DNA from: a virus
Lineage: Duplodnaviria > Heunggongvirae > Uroviricota > Caudoviricetes
Strand: one strand, 5' to 3'
DNA length: 17,603 nucleotides
IMG/VR virus record: IMGVR_UViG_2703718840_000011
Shown here: positions 2,792-15,985 of the stretch, in pieces
How positions within the stretch are numbered: the stretch's first letter is position 1
Layout: every line of letters begins with the position of its first letter
The notes under the pieces: model-generated
What the model was told of the DNA's origin: nothing
The model's input: the letters and a program-made list of their open reading frames with translations, nothing else
The model's database searches: none
Translations under genes and position numbers: made by a program

Positions 2792-3376
2792 TTACTCCAT
2801 AACAGGGACAGCAGGCCACTCAATATCCGGTGCTACTGATGTATCAACACGGTTCAGCAACACCCGATACTTTTTCCAGGCTTCCAGCAATGAGGTTTCT
2901 TCCTCCGTTGCAATTTCCAGATCTGCAGCATCCTGAAGCGGCGCAATATGCTCACTGGCTACCTGCATCAGGTTGTTTTTTGTTTCTTCCGCCTCCCGGA
3001 TCCGGAACAGTTTTTCTGCTTCCGTATCCTTCACCCAGGCTGTGCCGTTCCACTTCTGAAACTCCCCTTCCGGCGATAACCAGGTAACATTTTCCGGTAA
3101 CGGACCGAGTTCAGAAATAAATAACTCGTCCCCTGACGCTACGTCATAAACCGTTTTACCCCGATGGTCTTCAACGAGATGCCACGATGCCTCATCACTG
3201 TTGAAAACAGCCACAAAGCCAGCAGGAATATCTGGTGGTGCAATATCGGTACTGTTTGCTGGCAGACCTGTATGAGGCGGAATATATGCGTCACCTTCAC
3301 CAATAAATTCATTAGTTCCGGCCAGCAGATTATAAATTTTTATGGTCCGTGCTTGTTCACTCATTCTGAATGCCAT
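2792..3376 (-). CDS. tfa: Tail fiber assembly protein (Tfa family, lambdoid type)
   Basis: 194-aa [57 protein letters not shown]... closely matches Tfa proteins of E. coli lambdoid prophages as I recall them. Start overlaps the stop of the upstream stf-type ORF (TAATG). Confidence 0.85.
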
Positions 3377-8165: not shown

Positions 8166-8776
8166 GCGTTAGTTTCTCCACAACCAGAAGCAATCGACGC
8201 CACGACGCCCGGAGCTGCACACTCGCGGGCGTCATTACTTTCTGAAATGCAAAAAATTTTGTAGACAAGTGCTGCATGCTCCTGCAGCTTCGAAATTGAG
8301 AGATACAGCTCGTCGTTAATTGCTGTCTTCTCATGCGGTTCCACTACACCGTCTTCGATTGCTGAACGAATCTGTTTTGAATAACTGCCGATCTGTTCAA
8401 TGACTTCCAGCAGACGCTGGTTAATATCGGCGTTGTCCACATCCTCGACGTCAGGAAGAGACACAAAGACGCCATTTGCAGACTGCGCCACAGCATCAGC
8501 AATGAAGTGAGTTCCACCAGCACGTTGCAAAATCATTGCCCATCCCAGCGGGAAAATCTGATCGCCATCAGCACGAAGGCGGTTAAATAATGCGTTCTCT
8601 GTTACATCCAGCCAGTCAGCTGCTTCAGCGTAACCACCCGGCAACTTTGCGATAGTTTTTCTGACAGCTTTCACGTACCACTCAGGCTGTTTTTCTACTT
8701 TCCAGTGATGCTTACCCACGGTTAGCCTCATCGTTCTGTGGTTTCTGTTAATCGATTTATCCATTAGATTTTTCAT
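8162..8776 (-). CDS. CII-like regulatory protein (phage 186 CII / YdaT-like); start uncertain
   Basis: Sits immediately downstream of cro. The segment [25 protein letters not shown] resembles the 186-CII-type motif (LRNKLNPEQPHQFTPPELWLL). The track ORF begins at a GTG (8833) inside cro; in-frame ATGs at about 8776, 8764 and 8731 are more plausible, none with a strong SD. Confidence 0.45.
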
Positions 8777-8957
8777 AAAGCTCAGGTTTAAATGGCAACC
8801 GTCCGCAAGTTCTATATGCAGCTTCTGCTGCACGTCCTTTTGGAATTAACTGGCCCGGACGGTTTCGCCACTGATAAACGGCTTCAGTTGTTATGCCGAA
8901 AAAAGCAGCAACTTTCTCAATACTGCCGAAGTAGCTTTCGATATCGTCAGTTGTCAT
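8757..8957 (-). CDS. Cro-like small HTH regulator (YdaS-type)
   Basis: 66 aa, divergent from the cI-like repressor with a ~97-bp operator-containing intergenic region; GGAGGG RBS. HTH-like segment VAAFFGITTEAVYQWRN. Confidence 0.65.
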   Translation of the reverse strand: MTTDDIESYFGSIEKVAAFFGITTEAVYQWRNRPGQLIPKGRAAEAAYRTCGRLPFKPELYEKSNG

Positions 8958-9054
8958 ACGCCCTCCAAACTAAGTTTTATTAGATGCTAATTACAAATCT
9001 ATCTTTGGTCAATAAAAACTAAGATTACTTAGCAATTCAAGAAATGGTGCTCCT
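8958..9054. promoter_or_regulatory. Immunity switch region (OR-like): divergent promoters with palindromic operator candidates
   Basis: Palindromes TTAGATGCTAA (about 8980-8990) and CTAAGATTACTTAG (about 9019-9032); ACTAAG repeated at about 8969 and 9018. Candidate minus-strand promoter TTGACC-17 bp-TAGCAT whose -10 overlaps the first palindrome. Confidence 0.4.
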
Positions 9055-9681
9055 ATGGAAACGGTTGGTCAGCGTATAAAAGCTCTGAGAAGAGTTACCA
9101 GAACGTCCCAGAAAGAATTGGGTAAATTTTGTGGAGTAAGCGACGTTGCTGTGGGGTACTGGGAGAAAGACATCAATACCCCTGGTGGGGAGGCACTTTC
9201 GAAATTAGCGAAGTTCTTCAATACGTCAATAGATTACATTCTTTATGGTGCTGAGTTTGAAGGCAAACTCGTCACAAACATGCGCAGAGTTCCTGTAATA
9301 TCGTGGGTTCAGGCTGGGCAGTTTACTGAGTGCAGGGCAGCAGAAGTGTTTAGTGAAGTGGACAAGTGGGTAGATACATCATTAAAGATTGGTGATAACT
9401 CATTTGCATTAGAGGTTAAAGGTGACTCCATGACTAACCCTAATGGCCTCCCAACAATACCAGAAGGCGCAACAGTGATTGTAGATCCAGATGCAGAACC
9501 TCGTCATGGAAAAATAGTCATCGCTCGACTTGATGGAACAAACGAAGCTACAGTAAAAAAATTAGTCATCGATGGCCCTCAAAAGTTTTTAGTGCCATTA
9601 AATCCTCGGTATCCCAACATCCCTATCAATGGTAATTGCCTTATCATTGGTGTAGTCAAAGGAGTTCAATACGAACTCTAA
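9055..9681 (+). CDS. cI-like prophage repressor (N-terminal XRE-type HTH, C-terminal S24 LexA-like autopeptidase)
   Basis: 208 aa; HTH QKELGKFCGVSDVAVGYWEKD; C-terminal domain with Ser nucleophile in GDSMTNP and Lys in ATVKKLVIDG, the hallmark of RecA-stimulated self-cleaving repressors. Confidence 0.85.
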   Translation: METVGQRIKALRRVTRTSQKELGKFCGVSDVAVGYWEKDINTPGGEALSKLAKFFNTSIDYILYGAEFEGKLVTNMRRVPVISWVQAGQFTECRAAEVFSEVDKWVDTSLKIGDNSFALEVKGDSMTNPNGLPTIPEGATVIVDPDAEPRHGKIVIARLDGTNEATVKKLVIDGPQKFLVPLNPRYPNIPINGNCLIIGVVKGVQYEL

Positions 9682-9695
9682 GACCTCTCTTCTCT

Positions 9696-9763
9696 AACTA
9701 AGGCACCGAACTAAGAAAAGTTTGGTGTTTTCTCTTGCCATAATAACTAAGTTAAGTTAGATT
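9696..9763 (+). promoter_or_regulatory. PL-like early-left promoter/operator candidate immediately downstream of cI
   Basis: Three AACTAAG copies (about 9696, 9709, 9745), sharing the ACTAAG core seen in the cI-cro intergenic region. Candidate promoter TTGCCA (about 9735-9740), 17-bp spacer containing AACTAAG, TAGATT (about 9758-9763). Confidence 0.35.
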
Positions 9764-9865
9764 TTATGTCAAAGATAACGAACAGGCAGGACGCCCACGA
9801 AGTAGCCGCCGGTGGCGTATGAATGACCGGATGATTCGTTAAATACTATGTGTAAGAGAGCGCAA

Positions 9866-10068
9866 ATGAACCGTTATTTCACATGCTCGTTTTGTGGCGC
9901 AAACGAGCTGCAGGCAAAAAAATCATCGCCAAAGGCGGAAAAGATGAAGTTGCTATCTGCTCTGAGTGCGTAGTCTTGTGTGTCGGAGCATTAATCAATA
10001 TCAGCACAACTATTCAGTTCACACCAAATGAGAATGCGCCTTTAGATGCGCGGAAATCTGGAGGTTAA
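9866..10068 (+). pseudogene. Small ClpX-N-terminal-type C4 zinc-finger protein ORF, split by a -1 frame change at an A7 run (slippery heptamer A AAA AAA)
   Basis: ATG at about 9866 opens MNRYFTCSFCGANELQAKK..., which stops after 35 codons. The track ORF 9883-10068 in the -1 frame continues ...KKIIAKGGKDEVAICSECVVLCVGAL. Joined, they give CSFCG...ICSECVVLC, similar to the ClpX zinc-binding domain (YCSFCGKSQHEV...YICDECVDLC). The frames meet in the A7 run at about 9916-9922. Confidence 0.5.
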
Positions 10069-10076
10069 AGAACAAA

Positions 10077-10352
10077 ATGAAAGTCCAGATTTTAAACAAT
10101 AGTGGTGAAGTCGTTTGGTCATACGACATAGCCGCTCCTGTAGATCAGAGCGGCGATAGCTGGACCAATGGGAAACATCAGATTATGGCTGGAGTTGTAT
10201 TCTCTTTACACCGTGCTTTGGAACAGGCTGAAGTATTTCCATCAGACCCTGAATGGAAATGGCCTTTTTCTATTTGTCCAAATTCGGAGAGCACATTTCA
10301 GAAAATTGGTCAGAAAGTCGCACTCGAAGAGCATCAGCCAACTGTTTTCTGA
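10077..10352 (+). CDS. Hypothetical protein (91 aa)
   Basis: GGAGG about 10 nt upstream of the ATG and immediately after the stop of the zinc-finger ORF, which is operon-like. No family recognised. The 3' end overlaps a convergent ORF. Confidence 0.45.
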   Translation: MKVQILNNSGEVVWSYDIAAPVDQSGDSWTNGKHQIMAGVVFSLHRALEQAEVFPSDPEWKWPFSICPNSESTFQKIGQKVALEEHQPTVF

Positions 10353-10515
10353 TTTTTTCAGGTAACTCGTCGGCATCGCAGAAACAACAACGCTCGATCA
10401 TGTTGAAAGCCGATTCGTAGAACTGTTTCTGCTGAGTGTCGCTGAGACAGGAAAAGAGCGACGTTACGATGATTTTATTAATTGCATTATCAAGTTCTTT
10501 TTCATCAAAAGTCAT
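10270..10515 (-). CDS. Hypothetical protein (81 aa), convergent to the early-left operon
   Basis: Plausible amino-acid composition; AAGGAAAA RBS-like sequence 5-6 nt upstream of the ATG. Its 3' end overlaps the + strand 91-aa ORF by about 83 bp, so one of the two is probably shorter or not real. Confidence 0.35.
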   Translation of the reverse strand: MTFDEKELDNAINKIIVTSLFSCLSDTQQKQFYESAFNMIERCCFCDADELPEKIRKQLADALRVRLSDQFSEMCSPNLDK

Positions 10516-10769
10516 TTGATTTTCCTTTTATGTATACGGGCTTAAAAGGATACCACCGAGCCTGAAGTGGTGAAAAGACAGGCACATAACAGCTAAGTAT
10601 TTTCAACCAGAGAGAATCCTTAGCGTTGTGGTGAATGCGGCTCAGCGCACGCGGGTTAAGGTTGAGGCTGACAGTCGACCTTCTGTGGATACCCACCCGT
10701 CTGGTGTGCAACCTTCGCCAGGCACCGGGAGGCACCCGGCACCACAACTTTATGCTGTGTGTAGTCCTG

Positions 10770-10815
10770 GCGGTACCAGTTTGTACCCTTGCTTCCGGCT
10801 GGTACCGCTCTTTTT
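10770..10815 (+). terminator. Rho-independent terminator inside the early-left transcription unit
   Basis: GCGGTACCAG - 19-nt loop - CTGGTACCGC followed by TCTTTTTAC, a 10-bp perfect stem with a T-run on the + strand. Confidence 0.5.
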
Positions 10816-10904
10816 ACAAAACAGAGAAGAGCATCACCGGACGACGGGCTCATAACCCAATCCATCCGGGCGGCTGCCACCGCAGGTGTTCTTCTCTGTT
10901 TTGT
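10816..10904 (+). other. Large stem-loop: perfect 15-bp inverted repeat (ACAAAACAGAGAAGA ... TCTTCTCTGTTTTGT) separated by ~59 nt of GC-rich sequence, in the leader of the yfdP-like gene
   Basis: Seen directly, immediately after the terminator T-run and about 50 nt before the next gene's RBS. The stem can extend by a few pairs and the interior contains sub-hairpins. Confidence 0.45.
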
Positions 10905-10952
10905 GGAGAAACCAACCGACCTTGCAGGGTCGATATGATGAGGAGCAGCAAA

Positions 10953-11315
10953 ATGGCTAGCGAACGCAGTACTGATGTGCAGGCATTTATCGGGGAGCTG
11001 GACGGCGGCGTATTTGAAACCAAAATCGGCGCAGTTCTCAGTGAAGTCGCTTCCGGTGTGATGAACACGAAAACCAAAGGTAAGGTCTCGCTCAACCTGG
11101 AAATCGAACCGTTTGATGAGAACCGTGTGAAAATAAAACATAAACTCTCATATGTTCGCCCGACTAACCGCGGGAAAATTTCCGAAGAAGACACCACCGA
11201 AACACCGATGTATGTCAATCGCGGTGGTCGCCTGACTATTCTGCAGGAAGACCAGGGACAATTACTGACTCTTGCCGGTGAACCTGACGGAAAACTCCGC
11301 GCAGCAGGTCATTAA
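10953..11315 (+). CDS. Hypothetical protein, 120 aa (YfdP-like by position and length)
   Basis: Start chosen at the internal ATG preceded by GAGGAG with 7-nt spacing. The long track ORF from 10635 is an artefact of GC-rich structured sequence upstream. Length and position match what I recall for yfdP of CPS-53; the sequence identity is not confirmed. Confidence 0.55.
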   Translation: MASERSTDVQAFIGELDGGVFETKIGAVLSEVASGVMNTKTKGKVSLNLEIEPFDENRVKIKHKLSYVRPTNRGKISEEDTTETPMYVNRGGRLTILQEDQGQLLTLAGEPDGKLRAAGH

Positions 11316-11379
11316 TATCGTTTTTAATTAACTGATTATTTATCTCATCACTGAATATTTTATATAGTGAGGACTGATT

Positions 11380-12204
11380 ATGTCTCAGAACTTAGACGCA
11401 ACCGCAATTAATCAAATCCATGCCCTTATTTCTGCTCAGGGTGTTAATGAAATTATCAGTAAGATTGGTGCCGATGCTGTGGCATTGCCTGAGAATTTCC
11501 GCATTCATGATCTGGAAAAATTTAATTTAAATCGCTTCCGTTTCCGTGGTGCGCTTTCCACTGCCAGCATCGATGACTTTACCCGTTATTCTAAAGATCT
11601 TGCAGATGAAGGCACCCGCTGCTTTATCGATGCTGATAATATGCGTGCCGTCAGTGTGCTTAACCTGGGTACTATTGATGAACCAGGTCACGCAGATAAC
11701 ACCGCCACTCTCAAACTGAAAAAGACAGCACCGTTCTCTGCCCTGTTGTCTGTTAACGGCGAGCGTAACTCCCAGAAGTCACTGGCAGAATGGATTGAAG
11801 ACTGGGCCGACTACCTTGTGGGCTTTGATGCTAATGGTGACGCCATTCAGGCAACCAAAGCTGCTGCGGCGATCCGTAAAATCACAATTGAAGCGAACCA
11901 GACCGCTGATTTTGAAGATAATGACTTCAGCGGCAAACGCTCCCTGATGGAGTCTGTCGAAGCGAAGACCAAAGACATTATGCCTGTGGCATTTGAATTT
12001 AAATGCGTTCCGTTTGAAGGTCTGAAAGAACGTCCGTTTAAATTACGCCTCAGCATTATCACTGGCGATCGTCCTGTACTGGTTCTGCGCATTATTCAGC
12101 TGGAAGCGGTGCAGGAAGAAATGGCTAACGAATTTCGTGATCTGCTTGTTGAGAAATTCAAAGACAGCAAAGTAGAAACCTTTATTGGTACTTTCACCGC
12201 CTGA
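11380..12204 (+). CDS. yfdQ: YfdQ-like prophage protein (274 aa), function unknown
   Basis: 274-aa ORF with GAGGA RBS. Length, N-terminus ([14 protein letters not shown]...) and the yfdP-Q-R-S-T gene order match my recollection of the CPS-53/KplE1 yfdQ gene. Symbol given on that recollection, not a search. Confidence 0.7.
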
Positions 12205-12216
12205 TTTCATTACTGC

Positions 12217-12240
12217 AAATGCCCCTGCGGGGGCATTTAT
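12217..12240 (+). terminator. Hairpin (AAATGCCCC-TGCG-GGGGCATTT) after the yfdQ-like gene; weak terminator or attenuator
   Basis: 9-bp GC-rich stem seen directly, with only a short T tract (ATTTAT). Confidence 0.35.
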
Positions 12241-12331
12241 GGAAACGTAATTAACTCAATAATCACCGGATGGTGAGGGCTTCCTTTTACCAGAATTCAG
12301 CGCGGTGCAGTGCATATACGTGGAGAATAAA

Positions 12332-12868
12332 ATGTCATTTATTAAAACTTTTTCCGGGAAGCATTTTTATTATGACAAGATAAATAAAGACGACATCGAT
12401 ATTAACGATATCGCGGTTTCCCTTTCAAATATCTGTCGCTTTGCCGGTCATCTTTCGCACTTCTACAGCGTCGCCCAACATGCGGTTCTTTGCAGCATGC
12501 TGGTGCCGCAGGAATTTGCTTTTGAAGCGTTAATGCATGATGCAACAGAAGCGTATTGCCAGGACATCCCGGCTCCACTGAAACGCCTTCTTCCTGACTA
12601 TAAACGGATGGAAGAAAAAATAGACGCCGTAATCCGTGAGAAATACGGGTTACCCCCGGTTATGAGCACGCCCGTGAAATATGCCGATCTCATCATGCTG
12701 GCAACCGAACGCCGCGATCTCGGGCTTGATGATGGCTCTTTCTGGCCTGTACTGGAAGGTATCCCGGCAACAGAGATGTTCAAAGTGATTCCACTGTCGC
12801 CAGGCCATGCCTATGGGATGTTTATGGAACGTTTTAACGAGTTATCGGAGTTACGCAAATGCGCATGA
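12332..12868 (+). CDS. yfdR: HD-domain phosphohydrolase (YfbR-type 5'-deoxynucleotidase fold), YfdR-like
   Basis: Start at the internal ATG (MSFIKTFSGKHFYYDKIN) preceded by GGAGAATAAA, giving 178 aa. H...HD metal-binding motifs (SVAQHAV, ALMHDATEAY). Confidence 0.75.
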   Translation: MSFIKTFSGKHFYYDKINKDDIDINDIAVSLSNICRFAGHLSHFYSVAQHAVLCSMLVPQEFAFEALMHDATEAYCQDIPAPLKRLLPDYKRMEEKIDAVIREKYGLPPVMSTPVKYADLIMLATERRDLGLDDGSFWPVLEGIPATEMFKVIPLSPGHAYGMFMERFNELSELRKCA

Positions 12869-13221
12869 ATGTTTTCGAAATGGAAGGGTTTCTTCGCGGG
12901 AAATGTGTACCGCGAGATCTGAAAGTGAACGAAACAAATGCTGAGTACCTAGTACGTAAATTCGACGCGCTTGAAGCTAAATGTGCGGCACTGGAAAACA
13001 AAATAATACCAGTGTCAGCTGAACTGCCACCTGCAAATGAAAGTGTTCTGTTATTTGATGCTAACGGAGAAGGCTGGCTAATTGGCTGGCGTTCTCTCTG
13101 GTACACCTGGGGACAAAAAGAAACCGGAGAATGGCAGTGGACATTTCAGGTCGGGGACCTTGAAAACGTCAATATCACTCACTGGGCAGTAATGCCGAAA
13201 GCACCGGAGAATAAGAAATGA
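12859..13221 (+). CDS. yfdS: YfdS-like hypothetical protein (120 aa)
   Basis: Start overlaps the yfdR-like stop (translationally coupled). Length and order match my recollection of yfdS. Confidence 0.65.
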   Translation: MRMNVFEMEGFLRGKCVPRDLKVNETNAEYLVRKFDALEAKCAALENKIIPVSAELPPANESVLLFDANGEGWLIGWRSLWYTWGQKETGEWQWTFQVGDLENVNITHWAVMPKAPENKK

Positions 13222-13433
13222 GCGTGATAAAAACTCATACAGGAATTGTTATTACCCGAAACGGTCCGCAGGTAAAAAAACTGCACCAGACAAAGCGGAT
13301 GTGGGTCGTCGGAGAAAACGAGTTTTACCACAAAGAAACCGGACGCCGCCACTTTGCAGAAAATACGCGCCGCCGACTGCTCCTGGACAGCATCAGGCCA
13401 ATTAAACAGGTAGCAACCAGAGAACAAAATTAA
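13218..13433 (+). CDS. Hypothetical small basic protein (71 aa) in the yfdT position
   Basis: ATGA overlap with the upstream gene. K/R-rich. Shorter than the ~100 aa I recall for yfdT, so no symbol assigned. Confidence 0.5.
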   Translation: MSVIKTHTGIVITRNGPQVKKLHQTKRMWVVGENEFYHKETGRRHFAENTRRRLLLDSIRPIKQVATREQN

Positions 13434-13494
13434 TTATCAGGACTGAAATTTGATATTACTGCCCGTGTGCAGCGGGTTAAGTGGAGAAACAGCC

Positions 13495-13704
13495 ATGGCA
13501 AAACTAATGAAAGCGAGCCAATGGGGACGCCGTGAATTCTCTAATGGCTCAATTCCTGACAACCGAACGATAAAACGCTGGGTCGAGAACGGTCTGCTCA
13601 TGGGGCGTATAGTGGACGGTTCTGTTTTTGTCTGCGAAACAGAAAAATGGGGAGTCGACTCAATGGTTAGTCAAGCTGTTCGCAAGTTAATAAATGAGGG
13701 ATGA
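13495..13704 (+). CDS. xis: Excisionase (lambda Xis-type)
   Basis: KASQWGRREFSNGSIPDNRTIKRWVENGLLMGRIVDGSVFVCETEKWGV parallels lambda Xis (LQEWNARQRRPRSLETVRRWVRECRIFPP...GREYLFHESAVKV). Start chosen at the ATG with GGAG 8 nt upstream. Its stop overlaps the integrase start. Confidence 0.6.
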   Translation: MAKLMKASQWGRREFSNGSIPDNRTIKRWVENGLLMGRIVDGSVFVCETEKWGVDSMVSQAVRKLINEG

Positions 13705-14885
13705 CCATGGCGGCAAGGCCACGTAAAAAAGAATACAGACATCTTCCTGATTATCTGGTTTTTGATAAAGATCGAGGTGTTTATAAATTCACACTTATTA
13801 CCGGAAAAAAGAAAAATATAGGTAAGGATCGGGCAATAGCCGTTGCAATCGCCAGAGAGTACAACCTGAGGATGCGATCAGAATTATACCCATCAGTGGA
13901 TAATCTTATTAGAGAATCTGGCGGGGTCACCGGAGAAGCAAAACCATTTGCTGAACATGTCGATCACATAATGGCCAGAATTATCGAAGACGAACGACCT
14001 TCCCAGAGTACCTTAGATGACTGGAAAAATGACGCTCTACGCGTAAAAGCATTTTTCGTAAATGTTCCGGCATGCGATATCGAACTTGAACACGTTAATG
14101 CCTACATCAACAAATATCATGCCAGCGCATCCGCAAATGTGCAGAACAGAAAGGTCAGCTTTCTTAAAAAGTTGTTCTCTTATGCGGTCGATGAATCACT
14201 AATGCAGGATAACCCGGCCATCAGAAAAAAAATGCGTAGGACTGATGAGAAGAAAAGACGGCGCCTGTCACTCGAGCATTTTATAGCTATCAGGCAGGCC
14301 GCTGCACCATGGTTAAGAACAGCAATGGACCTAGCATTGCAGACTACACATGCACGACTCGAAGTATCGCGAATCCGTTACTCAATTCGCGAACCTAAAG
14401 ACGGTTTATGTGGATGTGTTTGGTTCGAACAACCACAAAATGGCATATATGGTACACTATACATCCATAGGCAAAAAGTACAAAAAAAGGAGGCATCACA
14501 TGTTGCAATACCAATTGGTGAAGAATTGAAACGGATAATTGACAATAGCCGTGACAATGTGGCCAGTCCCTTTGTCGTTCATAGAATCCCAGAACGGCAT
14601 GTTAAACGCAGTAAAGAGGTTTCGCACCCAACTCAAGTTGCACCAGATTATTTGAGTCGGTCATTCTCTTCCGTGCGAGACAAACTCGGACTATGCAATC
14701 ATCTAGCAATGGAACAAAGACCTACATTCCATGAAATAAGAGCTTTGGCAGCTCACCTATTTGATAAACAAGGGATTGATCCGCAGGGACGAATGGCACA
14801 TAGCGATGCGAAATCTACTAAAATTTATACTAAAAATCATATAGATTGGATTGTTGTCCCTCATGGAGAAATTAAAACCGGTTAG
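13701..14885 (+). CDS. int: Tyrosine-type site-specific integrase (lambda Int family)
   Basis: 394 aa. C-terminal catalytic region with H-x-x-R (TFHEIRALAAHLF) and the tyrosine motif (MAHSDAKSTKIYTKNH). Arm-binding-like N-terminus. Xis immediately upstream. Confidence 0.9.
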   Translation: MTMAARPRKKEYRHLPDYLVFDKDRGVYKFTLITGKKKNIGKDRAIAVAIAREYNLRMRSELYPSVDNLIRESGGVTGEAKPFAEHVDHIMARIIEDERPSQSTLDDWKNDALRVKAFFVNVPACDIELEHVNAYINKYHASASANVQNRKVSFLKKLFSYAVDESLMQDNPAIRKKMRRTDEKKRRRLSLEHFIAIRQAAAPWLRTAMDLALQTTHARLEVSRIRYSIREPKDGLCGCVWFEQPQNGIYGTLYIHRQKVQKKEASHVAIPIGEELKRIIDNSRDNVASPFVVHRIPERHVKRSKEVSHPTQVAPDYLSRSFSSVRDKLGLCNHLAMEQRPTFHEIRALAAHLFDKQGIDPQGRMAHSDAKSTKIYTKNHIDWIVVPHGEIKTG

Positions 14886-15022
14886 TTATTAAATTCTCCA
14901 CTTTATTTTGACTGACAATAACGGTTGCTAAGGCATAGAGTAAAGCTTAATTTAAAAGGCAGTTCTATGCCCATTTACCATAACTCCTCCCTTGTCCAGA
15001 AAGCAATATTTATTAATAAAAT

Positions 15023-15985
15023 TTATTTACCCTTATTATACTCTTCAGTAATCTTATTCATGGATGATATATATTTATCCAGCCCACCATAGTTGGCTAT
15101 CATTCGAAATGAATTACGGTACTCTGCCATTTTCACATCATGATTAGTAATTCCACACCAGCCACAAACTTTATTTTCCATGTTTAAAGGCTCATAACAT
15201 TTTTTACATTGCCTTGATGCAGGTATTATATTGCCATTAATAAATTGGTGTGATTTGAGATTTTGAGATAAAAGAAATGGTGTAGTTGTTGTTTTTCCTA
15301 TTACCATTTCGAAATATCTACATTTAGCCTTTTTAGCTAAAGATTGAATTTTCTGCTTTAATAAATCATTTGATTTGTGCCCAACTATAACTCCAGTTAT
15401 ACAATTAATCGGTACCGGAAGGAGCATAAGATTGTCATTCAGTTTAGTAAGTGCTTTCTCATTAATTATTACGCGACGTTCCTGCTCATAACTCCAGCAA
15501 GTTTGTTTTGTCAAATATGCGGCTGTCATTATACAGGATTGTAGCCAGTAGATATAACGAGGTTTACAGATATGAAATGCTCTCGCCAGAATGTCTTCAA
15601 TACCTGTATCTGGAGAATCTTTATATTCAACATCTGCTATTGAACTATGATCCTGGAAGCCGATTTCATCCAAATACTTTTTAAACTTCTCCTCATTAAT
15701 CTCTATTACAAAACCAGAAGAATTACCTGCATAATGTGCCCACATAGGTGGTATCACAGGGCTTTTCGTAAAACAAGTTGCTGGTTGTTTTGTAACCATG
15801 CCAATCATTTCATTGTAAAATGCTAACTCATCAGAACCGCGATTAAAATCAATAGTAAGGAAAAACTCATAGGGATCATTATATTCATGTAAATGAGAGA
15901 ATTTTATTCCTATATGTGTTTCATCCATCATCAATTTATCAATTATATCCGCTCCCATAAACTTATACAAATTGGTCATATACAA
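15023..15985 (-). CDS. DUF2971-family protein with C-terminal CxxC...CxxC zinc ribbon (320 aa)
   Basis: N-terminal NLYKFMGADIIDKL...IKFSHLHEYNDPYEF matches the DUF2971 hallmark (LYKY...FS.P..FNDPFE). C-terminus CKKCYEPLNMENKVCGWCG. AAGGAG RBS 7 nt upstream. Strongly AT-rich gene and flanks. Confidence 0.75.
   Translation of the reverse strand: MYMTNLYKFMGADIIDKLMMDETHIGIKFSHLHEYNDPYEFFLTIDFNRGSDELAFYNEMIGMVTKQPATCFTKSPVIPPMWAHYAGNSSGFVIEINEEKFKKYLDEIGFQDHSSIADVEYKDSPDTGIEDILARAFHICKPRYIYWLQSCIMTAAYLTKQTCWSYEQERRVIINEKALTKLNDNLMLLPVPINCITGVIVGHKSNDLLKQKIQSLAKKAKCRYFEMVIGKTTTTPFLLSQNLKSHQFINGNIIPASRQCKKCYEPLNMENKVCGWCGITNHDVKMAEYRNSFRMIANYGGLDKYISSMNKITEEYNKGK

Follow-up and report, generated by a model that had tools for sequence, protein, structure and literature searches.

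A predicted P22/phage 21-type immunity switch with CTAAG half-site operators in a lambdoid Escherichia coli prophage

The window (the whole stretch of 17,603 nucleotides that was analysed) contains two divergent regulatory genes:

8757..8957, minus strand: cro, 66 aa, the gene transcribed first from PR; it matches Pfam P22_Cro with E=4.4e-11, a match that exceeds the curated cut-off
9055..9681, plus strand: cI, encoding a 208-aa repressor of the P22 c2 / phage 21 cI family

The cI product is 47% identical to P22 c2 over 205 aa (BLASTP, E=2e-66) and contains the Pfam domains HTH_3 and Peptidase_S24; its matches in the PDB are the N-terminal domain of P22 c2 (E=5e-10) and the C-terminal domain of lambda cI (E=7e-28). 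The residues associated with S24 self-cleavage are present (Ala87-Gly88, Ser125, and Lys168). In alignments with lambda cI, VQA87-G88QF, GDS125M, and VK168KL correspond to the cleavage site and to the residue altered in the K192A structure, and they also align with the same motifs in P22 c2. cro is preceded by a Shine-Dalgarno sequence on the minus strand (GGAGG at 8961-8966), and the gene downstream of it, ymfL, matches Pfam Phage_CP76 (CII) with E=1.2e-13.

An exact search of the 17.6-kb window found five copies of AACTAAG (at 8968, 9017, 9696, 9709, and 9745), compared to 1.9 expected from whole-window shuffles. All are on the plus strand and none occurs elsewhere in the window; each lies either within the 97-bp cro-cI spacer or within the 184 bp after cI, which together make up 281 bp of non-coding DNA. 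In composition-matched shuffles of these two segments the mean was 0.054 copies, and of 20,000 such shuffles none contained five copies and 28 contained at least two. A preliminary description of this DNA had proposed that ACTAAG/CTTAG repeats flank cI and that three AACTAAG copies follow within 70 bp of its stop codon. Both statements are borne out, as the last copy ends 70 bp after the stop codon (9681). In contrast, the loose pattern CTAAGN4CTTAG with up to two mismatches gave four matches versus 5.5 expected and is not enriched window-wide, and therefore a position weight matrix (PWM) and positional tests were used. The signal for operators is the location of the matches together with three near-perfect matches, and not the count of the loose pattern. 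The perfect 7-mers all have the same orientation, and the right arms of the sites are always degenerate. The features between cro and cI are as follows:

8968..8985: OR1, AACTAAGTTTTATTAGAT, a strong predicted operator that lies over the start region of PR and directly adjoins its -10
8984..9012, minus strand: predicted promoter PR from the promoter scan, with -35 TTGACC (9012-9007), a 17-bp spacer, and -10 TAGCAT (8989-8984)
8992..9009: OR2, TACAAATCTATCTTTGGT, a weak candidate operator that overlaps the PR -35
9017..9034: OR3, AACTAAGATTACTTAGCA, a strong predicted operator adjoining cI, with a perfect 5-N4-5 dyad
9021-9026, plus strand: candidate PRM -10, TAAGAT, inside OR3

The arrangement of this region is retained in related loci. 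For instance, OR1 is located 86-88 bp upstream of the cI ATG in 16 of 17 loci and 97 bp upstream in the other (L013). The PR -35 (GGTCAA) is kept in nearly all relatives, and the -10 is kept as TAnnAT in the 14 loci that retain a divergent cro, with TAATAT in most relatives. Similarly, AAGAT within OR3 is invariant in all relatives, and TAAGAT, which is also found in OR3 of P22, phage 21, and Photorhabdus, is retained in all but one (L010). The promoter scan returned no sigma-70-like plus-strand match upstream of cI, and TAAGAT is thus a candidate PRM -10 only. The centre of the OR2 candidate as listed is 24 bp away from OR1 and 25 bp away from OR3, but the site scores approximately -3 bits and could be read in more than one register (+24 or +29 from OR1). 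A better site is present in Rahnella at the equivalent position (ACTAATCTTTATTAGG), and the P22 OR2 (ACTAAAGGAATCTTTAGT), which overlaps the -35 TTGACT, occupies the same position as the candidate. Of the two palindromes that had been highlighted previously, CTAAGATTACTTAG (9019-9032) forms the perfect dyad within OR3. The other, TTAGATGCTAA (8980-8990), was rejected as a separate operator because the palindrome is not conserved, its second arm being present in only about 4 of 17 relatives; the alignment identifies it as the right arm of OR1 plus the PR -10.

The features on the other side of cI are as follows:

9702..9735, plus strand: intrinsic terminator of the cI transcript, with an 11-bp stem (9702-9712 / 9719-9729) followed by a U-rich tail
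9709..9726: OL2, AACTAAGAAAAGTTTGGT, a weaker predicted operator upstream of the PL -35 and inside the terminator hairpin
9735..9763, plus strand: predicted promoter PL, with -35 TTGCCA (9735-9740), a 17-bp spacer, and -10 TAGATT (9758-9763)
9745..9762: OL1, AACTAAGTTAAGTTAGAT, the strongest predicted operator, which fills the PL spacer and overlaps the -10
9770..9865, plus strand: PL leader

The terminator hairpin has a minimum free energy of -15.1 kcal/mol (z = -2.2), and 108 of the 110 pair cells are retained when 10 loci are folded to a consensus. In three related sequences one pair is changed from CG to UA on both sides, and several wobble-compatible changes occur in the stem among relatives. 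PL, previously put forward as a candidate TTGCCA-17-TAGATT promoter, was located by the promoter scan as one of only three sigma-70-like matches in 8700-10100, with a predicted start near 9770. Most relatives have TTGACC, TTGACA, or TTGACG as the PL -35, with TTGAAT in L023, and the -10 TAGATT is invariant in all but one of those that have PL. The core of OL1, CTAAGTTAAGTTAG, is identical in 11 relatives from six genera. Since OL1 fills the PL spacer and overlaps the -10, bound repressor would be expected to occlude RNA polymerase.

The terminator stem places a constraint of its own on the right arm of OL2 (GTTTG). However, the unpaired AAG of the hairpin loop is kept in 9 of 10 loci while other loop bases vary, and the equivalents of OL2 in Yersinia proxima and Proteus are located outside the hairpin and score 22-26 bits. 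An operator role for OL2 is proposed here because of its position and the better sites in these distant relatives. Two of the three downstream AACTAAG copies (9709 and 9745) are therefore within predicted operator sites, but the third is not. The copy at 9696-9702 (plus strand) has no right arm, scores -13.6 in the PWM, and would overlap OL2. In mEp460, which is 95% identical, the sequence is AACCAAA, and most relatives either lack the copy or vary at this position, which suggests that this lone copy is probably non-functional. An OL3 formed from this copy or from the CTAAG at the cI stop (9678) was also rejected, as the two are unconserved (PWM -13.6 and -13.9, respectively).

BLAST segments and sequence comparison place the restart of homology with the other-immunity phages SfV, SfII, and SfIV near 9766, and therefore the exchangeable immunity module extends from OL to OR. 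Across 9770-9870 the PL leader has no significant fold (z = -0.7), and no second copy of it is present in the window, giving no support for a put-like pair. Rfam searches of the whole window (gathering threshold) and of 8700-10400 (E-value) identified no RNA family in the region, and a scan for intrinsic terminators across 9682-15100 returned only weak plus-strand candidates. This phage group is not known to encode a homologue of N. The segment 10270-10515 may contain a gene in the opposite orientation. Direct repressor control had been predicted for the whole downstream operon; such control is well supported only for the PL promoter itself, and its extension to xis and int (13450-14885) is an extrapolation.

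The PWM was based on 37 distinct sites from other species only. In the window this matrix scores OL1 at 26.9 bits, OR3 at 21.5 bits, and OR1 at 21.0 bits, with the next best match at 5.9 bits; overall, the scores were 26.9-28.4 bits for OL1 (rank 1 in the window), 21.5-22.7 bits for OR3 (rank 2), 21-22.5 bits for OR1 (rank 3), and 5.6 bits for OL2 (rank 6). Three sites reach at least 10 bits, compared to a mean of 0.22 in shuffles, although 1 of 100 shuffles gave a chance 21-bit site. A search of the window for the palindrome, proposed in the preliminary description as a check, thus yields OR1, OR3, and OL1 as the only strong matrix matches, and the same three sites alone exceed 13 bits in the complete 42.9-kb genome of mEp460_4F5. 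All 17 of the 17 loci, from Escherichia to Proteus and Rouxiella, have OR1 and OR3 exactly 49 bp apart, and OL2 and OL1 are separated by 33-36 bp both in the window and in 10 related loci. In OR1, OR3, and OL1 of all relatives, the inverted right arm nTTAG is kept at a fixed 4-bp distance, and the alignments contain footprints on the operators, -35, and -10 elements with diverged flanks. In five relatives (Serratia aquatilis and four loci of the Rouxiella group), the 140 bp that follow cI contain no OL. In a test on sequence alone, OR1, OR3, OL1, and OL2 take the form AACTAAG-(TTTT/ATTA/TTAA/AAAA)-nTTnG, and the operators are very probably 18-bp dyads, AACTAAG-(A/T)4-CTTAGTT.

The sites also vary together with the repressor. 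Across the family, the recognition helix VSDVAVGYWE is paired with the half-site CTAAG, VSNVAISQWE and VSHVAISQWE are paired with TTAAG, and VNRVTVTGWE is paired with GTAGG. This covariation ties the sites to cI. The interpretation of the two regions as OR and OL of a lambda-like switch, with a repressor-controlled early-left promoter directly after cI, is supported by comparative evidence, namely the conserved sites, their spacing, their standing as the only strong matches in the window and in the mEp460_4F5 genome, the alignment with P22 and phage 21, and the presence of the self-cleavage residues.

Comparison with known systems suggests that the region is very probably an immC-type immunity switch and a new member of the P22/phage 21 family. 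In addition to full-length repressor homology, it shares with these phages, whose own immC regions are almost the same as each other, a P22_Cro-family Cro divergent from cI and followed by a c1/cII-type activator gene, and 18-bp dyad operators with 7-bp arms and a 4-bp A/T centre; the P22 repressor binds the 18-bp site ATTTAAGATATCTTAAAT, in which the 4-bp centre has no protein contact. The distance from OR1 to OR3 is 49 bp here versus 48 bp in phage 21 and P22. OR regions of this type have three sites spaced by about 23-25 bp, the middle one of which is represented here by the weak OR2 candidate. On the left, the order cI, terminator, OL2, -35, OL1, -10 is shared, with 36 bp between OL2 and OL1 compared to 35 bp in the phage 21 annotation, which places cI, terminator, OL3, OL2, OL1, and pL within 125 bp. 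The PL promoters of P22 and phage 21, the latter with an annotated start site, can be aligned with that of the window, each consisting of a -35, 4 bp, and an 18-bp operator ending in the -10. Additionally, OL1 is the best site in both cases.

There are also several differences from P22 and phage 21. OL3 has no equivalent here, as no dyad is found upstream of OL2. OL2 is fused with the terminator hairpin, whereas in P22 and phage 21 it lies after the terminator. The cI start is approximately 20 bp past OR3 rather than abutting it, and no homologue of gene 24/N follows PL. The half-site is CTAAG (AACTAAG) here versus TTAAG (ATTTAAG), and from P22 to this repressor the recognition helix changes from N32 to D30, S36 to G34, and Q37 to Y35, while the valine is kept (V33 = V31). 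The combination of a TTAAG half-site and the helix SNVAISQWE is thus replaced by CTAAG and SDVAVGYWE, from which a distinct, heteroimmune specificity relative to P22/phage 21 is predicted.

Lambda is similar in its logic, with divergent cI and cro, an OR that is tripartite (the middle site being only a candidate here), and an OL that controls, here presumably, the early operon running leftward to xis and int; its S24 C-terminal domain is also homologous, but it has 17-bp operators, an unrelated N-terminal domain, N/nut antitermination, and rexA and rexB between cI and OL. Only 27 bp separate the cI stop from OL2, and the lambda-type cI-rexAB-OL arrangement does not occur here. The preliminary description regarded a left promoter that abuts cI without rex genes as a departure. 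However, the phage 21 annotation and the P22 and SfV sequences have the same layout, and the absence of rex is therefore normal for the family. In SfV the immunity region is bordered by the same modules as here, a ymfL-like cII at one end and the PL leader at the opposite end; SfV also has the same layout of cI, terminator, -35, and operators, and an annotated terminator that, like that of phage 21, is in the same place as the one here. In contrast, its repressor specificity is different, with operators that carry a GTAC / ATGTAC motif in the same places, and its homology to the window restarts right after the PL -10.

It is therefore highly likely that the motif belongs to a P22/phage 21-type immunity switch carried by a lambdoid (SfV/KpLE1-like) E. 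coli prophage. Dimers of the 208-aa repressor would bind the 18-bp dyads, as would, probably, Cro. Repressor occupying OR1 (and OR2) in a lysogen would keep cro, the cII-like ymfL, and the replication genes silent, and repressor at OR3, which overlaps the likely PRM -10, would limit the synthesis of cI itself. The cI transcript would end at the hairpin terminator. Following DNA damage, RecA-stimulated self-cleavage of cI at Ala87-Gly88 via Ser125 and Lys168 would free PR and PL. Repressor binding, PR and PL activity, OR2, the position of PRM, cooperativity, and the extent of the PL transcript are all features that we infer from the comparisons above.

Several other explanations of the repeats were considered. 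Chance, or the low complexity of AT-rich intergenic DNA, might seem a natural source of clustered motifs in spacers with GC fractions of 0.32 and 0.42, particularly as the loose pattern is no more frequent in the window than expected. However, the composition-matched shuffles never reproduced the five copies, and different genera retain both the sequence and the position of the sites, so that this explanation is effectively refuted. It is also conceivable that only the downstream copies are by-products, one of a terminator hairpin (9709) and one of a constitutive promoter (9745), and that the left operon is not under repressor control. The hairpin (9702-9729) is indeed conserved with compensatory change, it accounts for the right arm of OL2 as the 3' half of its stem, OL2 has a low score, and the 9696 copy is judged to be non-functional by its conservation. 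This is nevertheless unlikely, as OL1 is the top PWM match of the window (28 bits), has a core that is identical across genera while its surroundings vary, has the dyad common to OR1 and OR3, and is located as is OL1 of phage 21 and P22. Even for OL2, the strong Yersinia and Proteus dyads outside any hairpin and the conserved unpaired loop AAG point to an operator.

A further alternative is that the functional unit is the direct repeat AACTAAG, bound as by the P2 C repressor, rather than a dyad. The shared orientation of the five perfect 7-mers is consistent with this, as is the recurrence of a 49-bp interval between copies on either side of cI (8968 to 9017, and 9696 to 9745). Yet the 9696 copy that the left pairing needs is lost in mEp460 and in most relatives, the inverted nTTAG arm is kept in OR1, OR3, and OL1 of all relatives, and the repressor is a homologue of P22 c2, the dimer of which binds dyads; direct repeats are thus a highly improbable basis for recognition. 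Finally, the operators could be used mainly by Cro or another prophage regulator, with induction by an antirepressor instead of cI self-cleavage. Lambdoid Cro proteins use the same operators as the repressor, and the comparative data are blind to which protein binds. Antirepressor-driven induction is also known in some Salmonella prophages (PMC3121763). Against this, cI retains intact residues at the cleavage site and in the catalytic dyad, the half-site covaries with the cI recognition helix, and no antirepressor gene was seen in a non-exhaustive look at the window, and such a mode of control is considered very unlikely.

The immunity switch proposed here is shared with several known phages. 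The same operators are present in mEp460_4F5, LLS, vB_EcoS-569R4, vB_EcoM-689R6, and Kati, whose repressors are 99-100% identical to that of the window (mEp460, 569R4, 689R6, and Kati) or 90% identical (LLS), and by these sequences they are of the same immunity type. Among 5,426 complete E. coli genomes, 518 (approximately 10%) contain this type. Mentions of mEp460 in the literature are mostly in prophage-typing lists. A 2025 paper on phage LLS called the operator specificity of its immunity group unknown, the operator sequences of the LLS/mEp460 group were not found in print anywhere in the searchable literature, and no published binding, transcription-start, or induction data were found for this immunity type.

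From the sequence, the switch itself is of the ordinary P22/lambda style, and the new part is its specificity, with the half-site CTAAG instead of the P22 TTAAG. More tentatively, and with somewhat less than even confidence, it is proposed that this specificity differs by approximately one base pair per half-site from that of P22/phage 21, and that OL2 doubles as a terminator stem-loop. If so, the change from TTAAG to CTAAG would deprive the P22 "valine cleft" of one of its four thymine methyls and accompany D30, G34, and Y35 in the recognition helix, and the 18 bp of OL2 would be a protein site in DNA and a terminator in RNA. Although the understanding of lambdoid switches is unchanged by this finding, it provides a concrete predicted operator, AACTAAG-N4-CTTAGTT, for a widespread E. 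coli prophage immunity type. This sequence may be used for prophage immunity typing, prediction of cross-repression, and the design of induction reporters, and it offers a natural one-base specificity variant to compare with the well-studied P22 c2-DNA structures.

The cI gene and the divergent cro gene are separated by a 97 bp spacer, and a further 184 bp of non-coding DNA lies 3' of cI. The cI product contains HTH_3 and Peptidase_S24 domains (Pfam) and is 47% identical to P22 c2 over its full length; its N-terminal domain resembles the P22 c2 DNA-binding domain of known structure (E=5e-10), and the C-terminal one resembles that of lambda cI (E=7e-28). The self-cleavage residues are all kept (Ala-Gly cleavage site A87-G88, catalytic serine S125, and lysine K168), and the repressor is predicted from them to be competent for SOS-induced cleavage, in agreement with a preliminary description of this DNA. 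Cro belongs to Pfam P22_Cro, and the next gene after cro, ymfL, to the CII family CP76. The 841 bp immunity region is present in 518 of 5,426 complete E. coli genomes and in phages vB_EcoS-569R4, vB_EcoM-689R6, Kati, and mEp460_4F5, whose repressors are 99-100% identical to that of the window, as well as in phage LLS (90%). Additionally, a 98% identical fragment of this E. coli prophage cI (coverage 0.76) lies on a 369 bp contig (L022) of a Fredinandcohnia humi (Bacillota) assembly, and is almost certainly contamination.

The preliminary description had proposed operator-like half-sites around cI, two palindromes, and a left promoter, and these sequences are present as claimed (CTAAGATTACTTAG at 9019-9032, TTAGATGCTAA at 8980-8990, and TTGCCA-17-TAGATT at 9735-9763). 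Across the 17,603 bp, AACTAAG occurs five times (8968, 9017, 9696, 9709, and 9745), all of them on the + strand and never outside the two spacers. Whole-window shuffles predict 1.9 copies; the count per se is unremarkable, but the placement in the two spacers is remarkable. Shuffling confined to these AT-rich spacers yielded 0.054 copies on average, and five copies were never reached in 20,000 shuffles. All five copies in the window fit the alignment AACTAAG-N4-nTTnG, with the right arm 4 bp away in four of them, and the true unit is, judging from this alignment, an 18 bp dyad. The P22 operator has the same form, with an 18 bp consensus (ATTTAAGATATCTTAAAT), TTAAG half-sites, and four central A/T pairs without protein contact. 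No operator sequences of this immunity group were found in the searchable literature.

Genes, predicted operators, and predicted promoters of the immunity region (window positions)
8757-8957, - strand: cro, divergent from cI
8968-8985: OR1, predicted operator, AACTAAG TTTT ATTAGAT
9012 to 8984, - strand: PR, predicted cro promoter, TTGACC-17-TAGCAT
8992-9009: OR2, candidate only, TACAAATCTATCTTTGGT
9017-9034: OR3, predicted operator, AACTAAG ATTA CTTAGCA
9055-9681, + strand: cI, divergent from cro
9709-9726: OL2, predicted operator, AACTAAG AAAA GTTTGGT
9735-9763, + strand: PL, predicted early-left promoter
9745-9762: OL1, predicted operator, AACTAAG TTAA GTTAGAT

The half-sites originally proposed are retained in OR1, OR3, OL1, and OL2, but not in two other places. 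The palindrome TTAGATGCTAA consists of the OR1 right arm plus the PR -10, and was rejected as an operator because only about 4 of 17 loci retain the second arm. The copy at 9696 lacks a right arm and would overlap OL2. In mEp460 it is AACCAAA, and most relatives do not have it; it is probably non-functional.

A scan of species-representative genomes for cI relatives returned 79 loci. About 20 of these are 63-90% identical (in Enterobacter, Kosakonia, Kluyvera, Serratia, Rahnella, Yersinia, Rouxiella, Providencia, and Proteus), and all of them keep the recognition helix S-D/G-V-x-V-G-Y-W-E. In every locus a dyad precedes the cI start by about 37 bp (by 48 bp in L013, of the Rouxiella group), and a second lies exactly 49 bp farther upstream in 17 of 17 loci, compared with 48 bp between the outer OR sites of phage 21 and P22. 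Among loci with a left promoter after cI, 11 relatives from six genera have an identical core (CTAAGTTAAGTTAG), while the flanks diverge. A weight matrix made from 37 distinct sites of other species, leaving out the window and E. coli phages, scored OL1 at 26.9, OR3 at 21.5, and OR1 at 21.0 bits, with the next best site in the window at 5.9 bits; shuffled sequence gave a mean of 0.22 sites of at least 10 bits, versus the three observed. The same three sites scored 22-29 bits in the complete 42.9 kb mEp460_4F5 genome, where the next best (12.7 bits) is inside the integrase gene. Lambda likewise has strong sites at OR and OL only. Being the only strong sites in the window, with their spacing kept in relatives, these predicted operators favor the earlier suggestion of a motif shared by OR and OL.

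Some relatives are organized differently. In the Rouxiella-group loci L013, L014, L016, and L027, OR1 and OR3 are 49 bp apart and a terminator is present 3' of cI, and OL and PL were not found within 140 bp after cI. L017 has the same downstream layout, a single upstream dyad, and an upstream gene that does not start with the usual cro. OL was also not found within 140 bp after cI in L010 (Serratia aquatilis). These six loci may be a different element type with the same repressor family.

On the right side, the PR -35 found by promoter scan is kept in nearly all relatives, and the -10 form TAnnAT is kept in loci with a divergent cro (TAATAT in most). OR1 spans the PR start region and adjoins the -10. 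The candidate OR2 overlaps the PR -35, as does P22 OR2 (ACTAAAGGAATCTTTAGT); it is listed as a candidate only, because it scores negative with the weight matrix in the window and has an ambiguous register. Inside OR3, TAAGAT (9021-9026) is conserved as AAGAT in every relative and in full in all but L010, and it also occurs in OR3 of P22, phage 21, and Photorhabdus. Since it is conserved although it includes central bases without contact by the P22 repressor, TAAGAT is a reasonable candidate for the -10 of PRM, the promoter of cI itself. If so, the cI leader would be about 21 nt in this group, versus the near-leaderless arrangement of P22.

On the left side, OL1 fills the PL spacer and has five bases in common with the -10. 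The window's PL can be aligned column for column with PL of P22 and of phage 21 (-35, 4 bp, 18 bp operator, right arm entering the -10). Their -10 is TAAATT versus TAGATT in the window, and therefore the base that changes the half-site also sits in the -10. The phage 21 GenBank record annotates cI, a terminator, OL3, OL2, OL1, and the start of pL in a span of 125 bp, with OL2 and OL1 35 bp apart and the -35 TTGACC between them. The position of OL1 and the PL alignment support the proposal of a repressor-controlled promoter right after cI. The lack of intervening rex genes, pointed out in the same description, is not unusual, being the norm in P22, phage 21, and SfV.

The RNA between cI and PL is predicted to form an 11 bp hairpin (-15.1 kcal/mol) with a U-rich tail after it. 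Over ten loci, 108 of 110 terminator pair cells are kept, and one pair has changed from CG to UA on both sides (a single evolutionary event). OL2 lies inside this hairpin and scores low in the window (5.6 bits). Its assignment as an operator is nevertheless supported by its position, since both the window and 10 related loci have a site 33-36 bp upstream of OL1, by 22-26 bit dyads outside any hairpin in Yersinia proxima and Proteus, and by conservation of the unpaired loop bases AAG while the remaining loop varies. The predicted OL has two sites, one of which is merged with the terminator.

Extending repressor control from PL to the distal left operon is an extrapolation. Terminator candidates on its + strand are only weak. 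In one strain, 51008369SK1, PGAP annotates a gene on the - strand (10270-10515; WP_000141752.1); this 81-aa ORF, opposed to the "early-left operon", has a good AAGGA ribosome-binding site. The PGAP annotation of strain G4/9 instead has an overlapping + strand ORF (10077-10352). The first gene after PL (9866-10068) is a 67-aa ClpX-type C4 zinc-finger ORF, split in the window by a 1 bp shorter A-run (9914-9920; A7 vs A8 in G4/9) that leaves one CxxC pair in frame 9866-9973 and the other in 9883-10068, either through a frameshift or a homopolymer sequencing error. Elsewhere, Rfam RF02111 (IS009 candidate small RNA) is matched over its full length at 2835-3033 on the - strand (221 bits vs a gathering score of 117).

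Within the PL leader, the segment ACAGGCAGGACGCCCACGAAGTAGCCGCC (9783-9811) is nearly identical in SfV, SfII, and SfIV, whose immunity differs, and in Kluyvera, Kosakonia, and Yersinia loci, and is in part common to P22 and phage 21 (CAGCAGGACGCTGGTAGCC). It matches no Rfam family, shows no significant fold, and occurs only once in the window. No N homologue is known for the group, and the paper on phage LLS for this reason speculates on put-like antitermination. In LLS (L003, 2460-3005), about 540 bp of GC-rich non-coding DNA unrelated to the window's leader lies between PL and yfdP, and might hold a structured RNA.

Both ymfL and the PL leader (from about 9766) are common to SfV, SfII, and SfIV, and the region between them is not. 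At both OR and OL, SfV carries a motif of its own (ATGTAC / GTAC); the layout is the same, and a terminator is annotated downstream of its cI. With flanks common to these phages but a different interior, the OL-to-OR stretch behaves as a single immunity module that can be exchanged, which would be expected from co-evolution of the sites with the repressor. Across the wider family, recognition helix and half-site vary together: VSNVAISQWE or VSHVAISQWE with TTAAG (P22, Photorhabdus, Xenorhabdus), VSDVAVGYWE with CTAAG (the window's immunity group), and VNRVTVTGWE with GTAGG (Morganella, Proteus). The P22 c2 valine that packs against thymine methyls is kept in the window's cI (V33 = V31), whereas N32, S36, and Q37 are replaced by D30, G34, and Y35. 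Overall, there is strong computational evidence that the region is a lysis-lysogeny switch of the P22 type whose operator sequence is new, and the helix and half-site differences from P22 predict heteroimmunity of the phage to P22 and phage 21.
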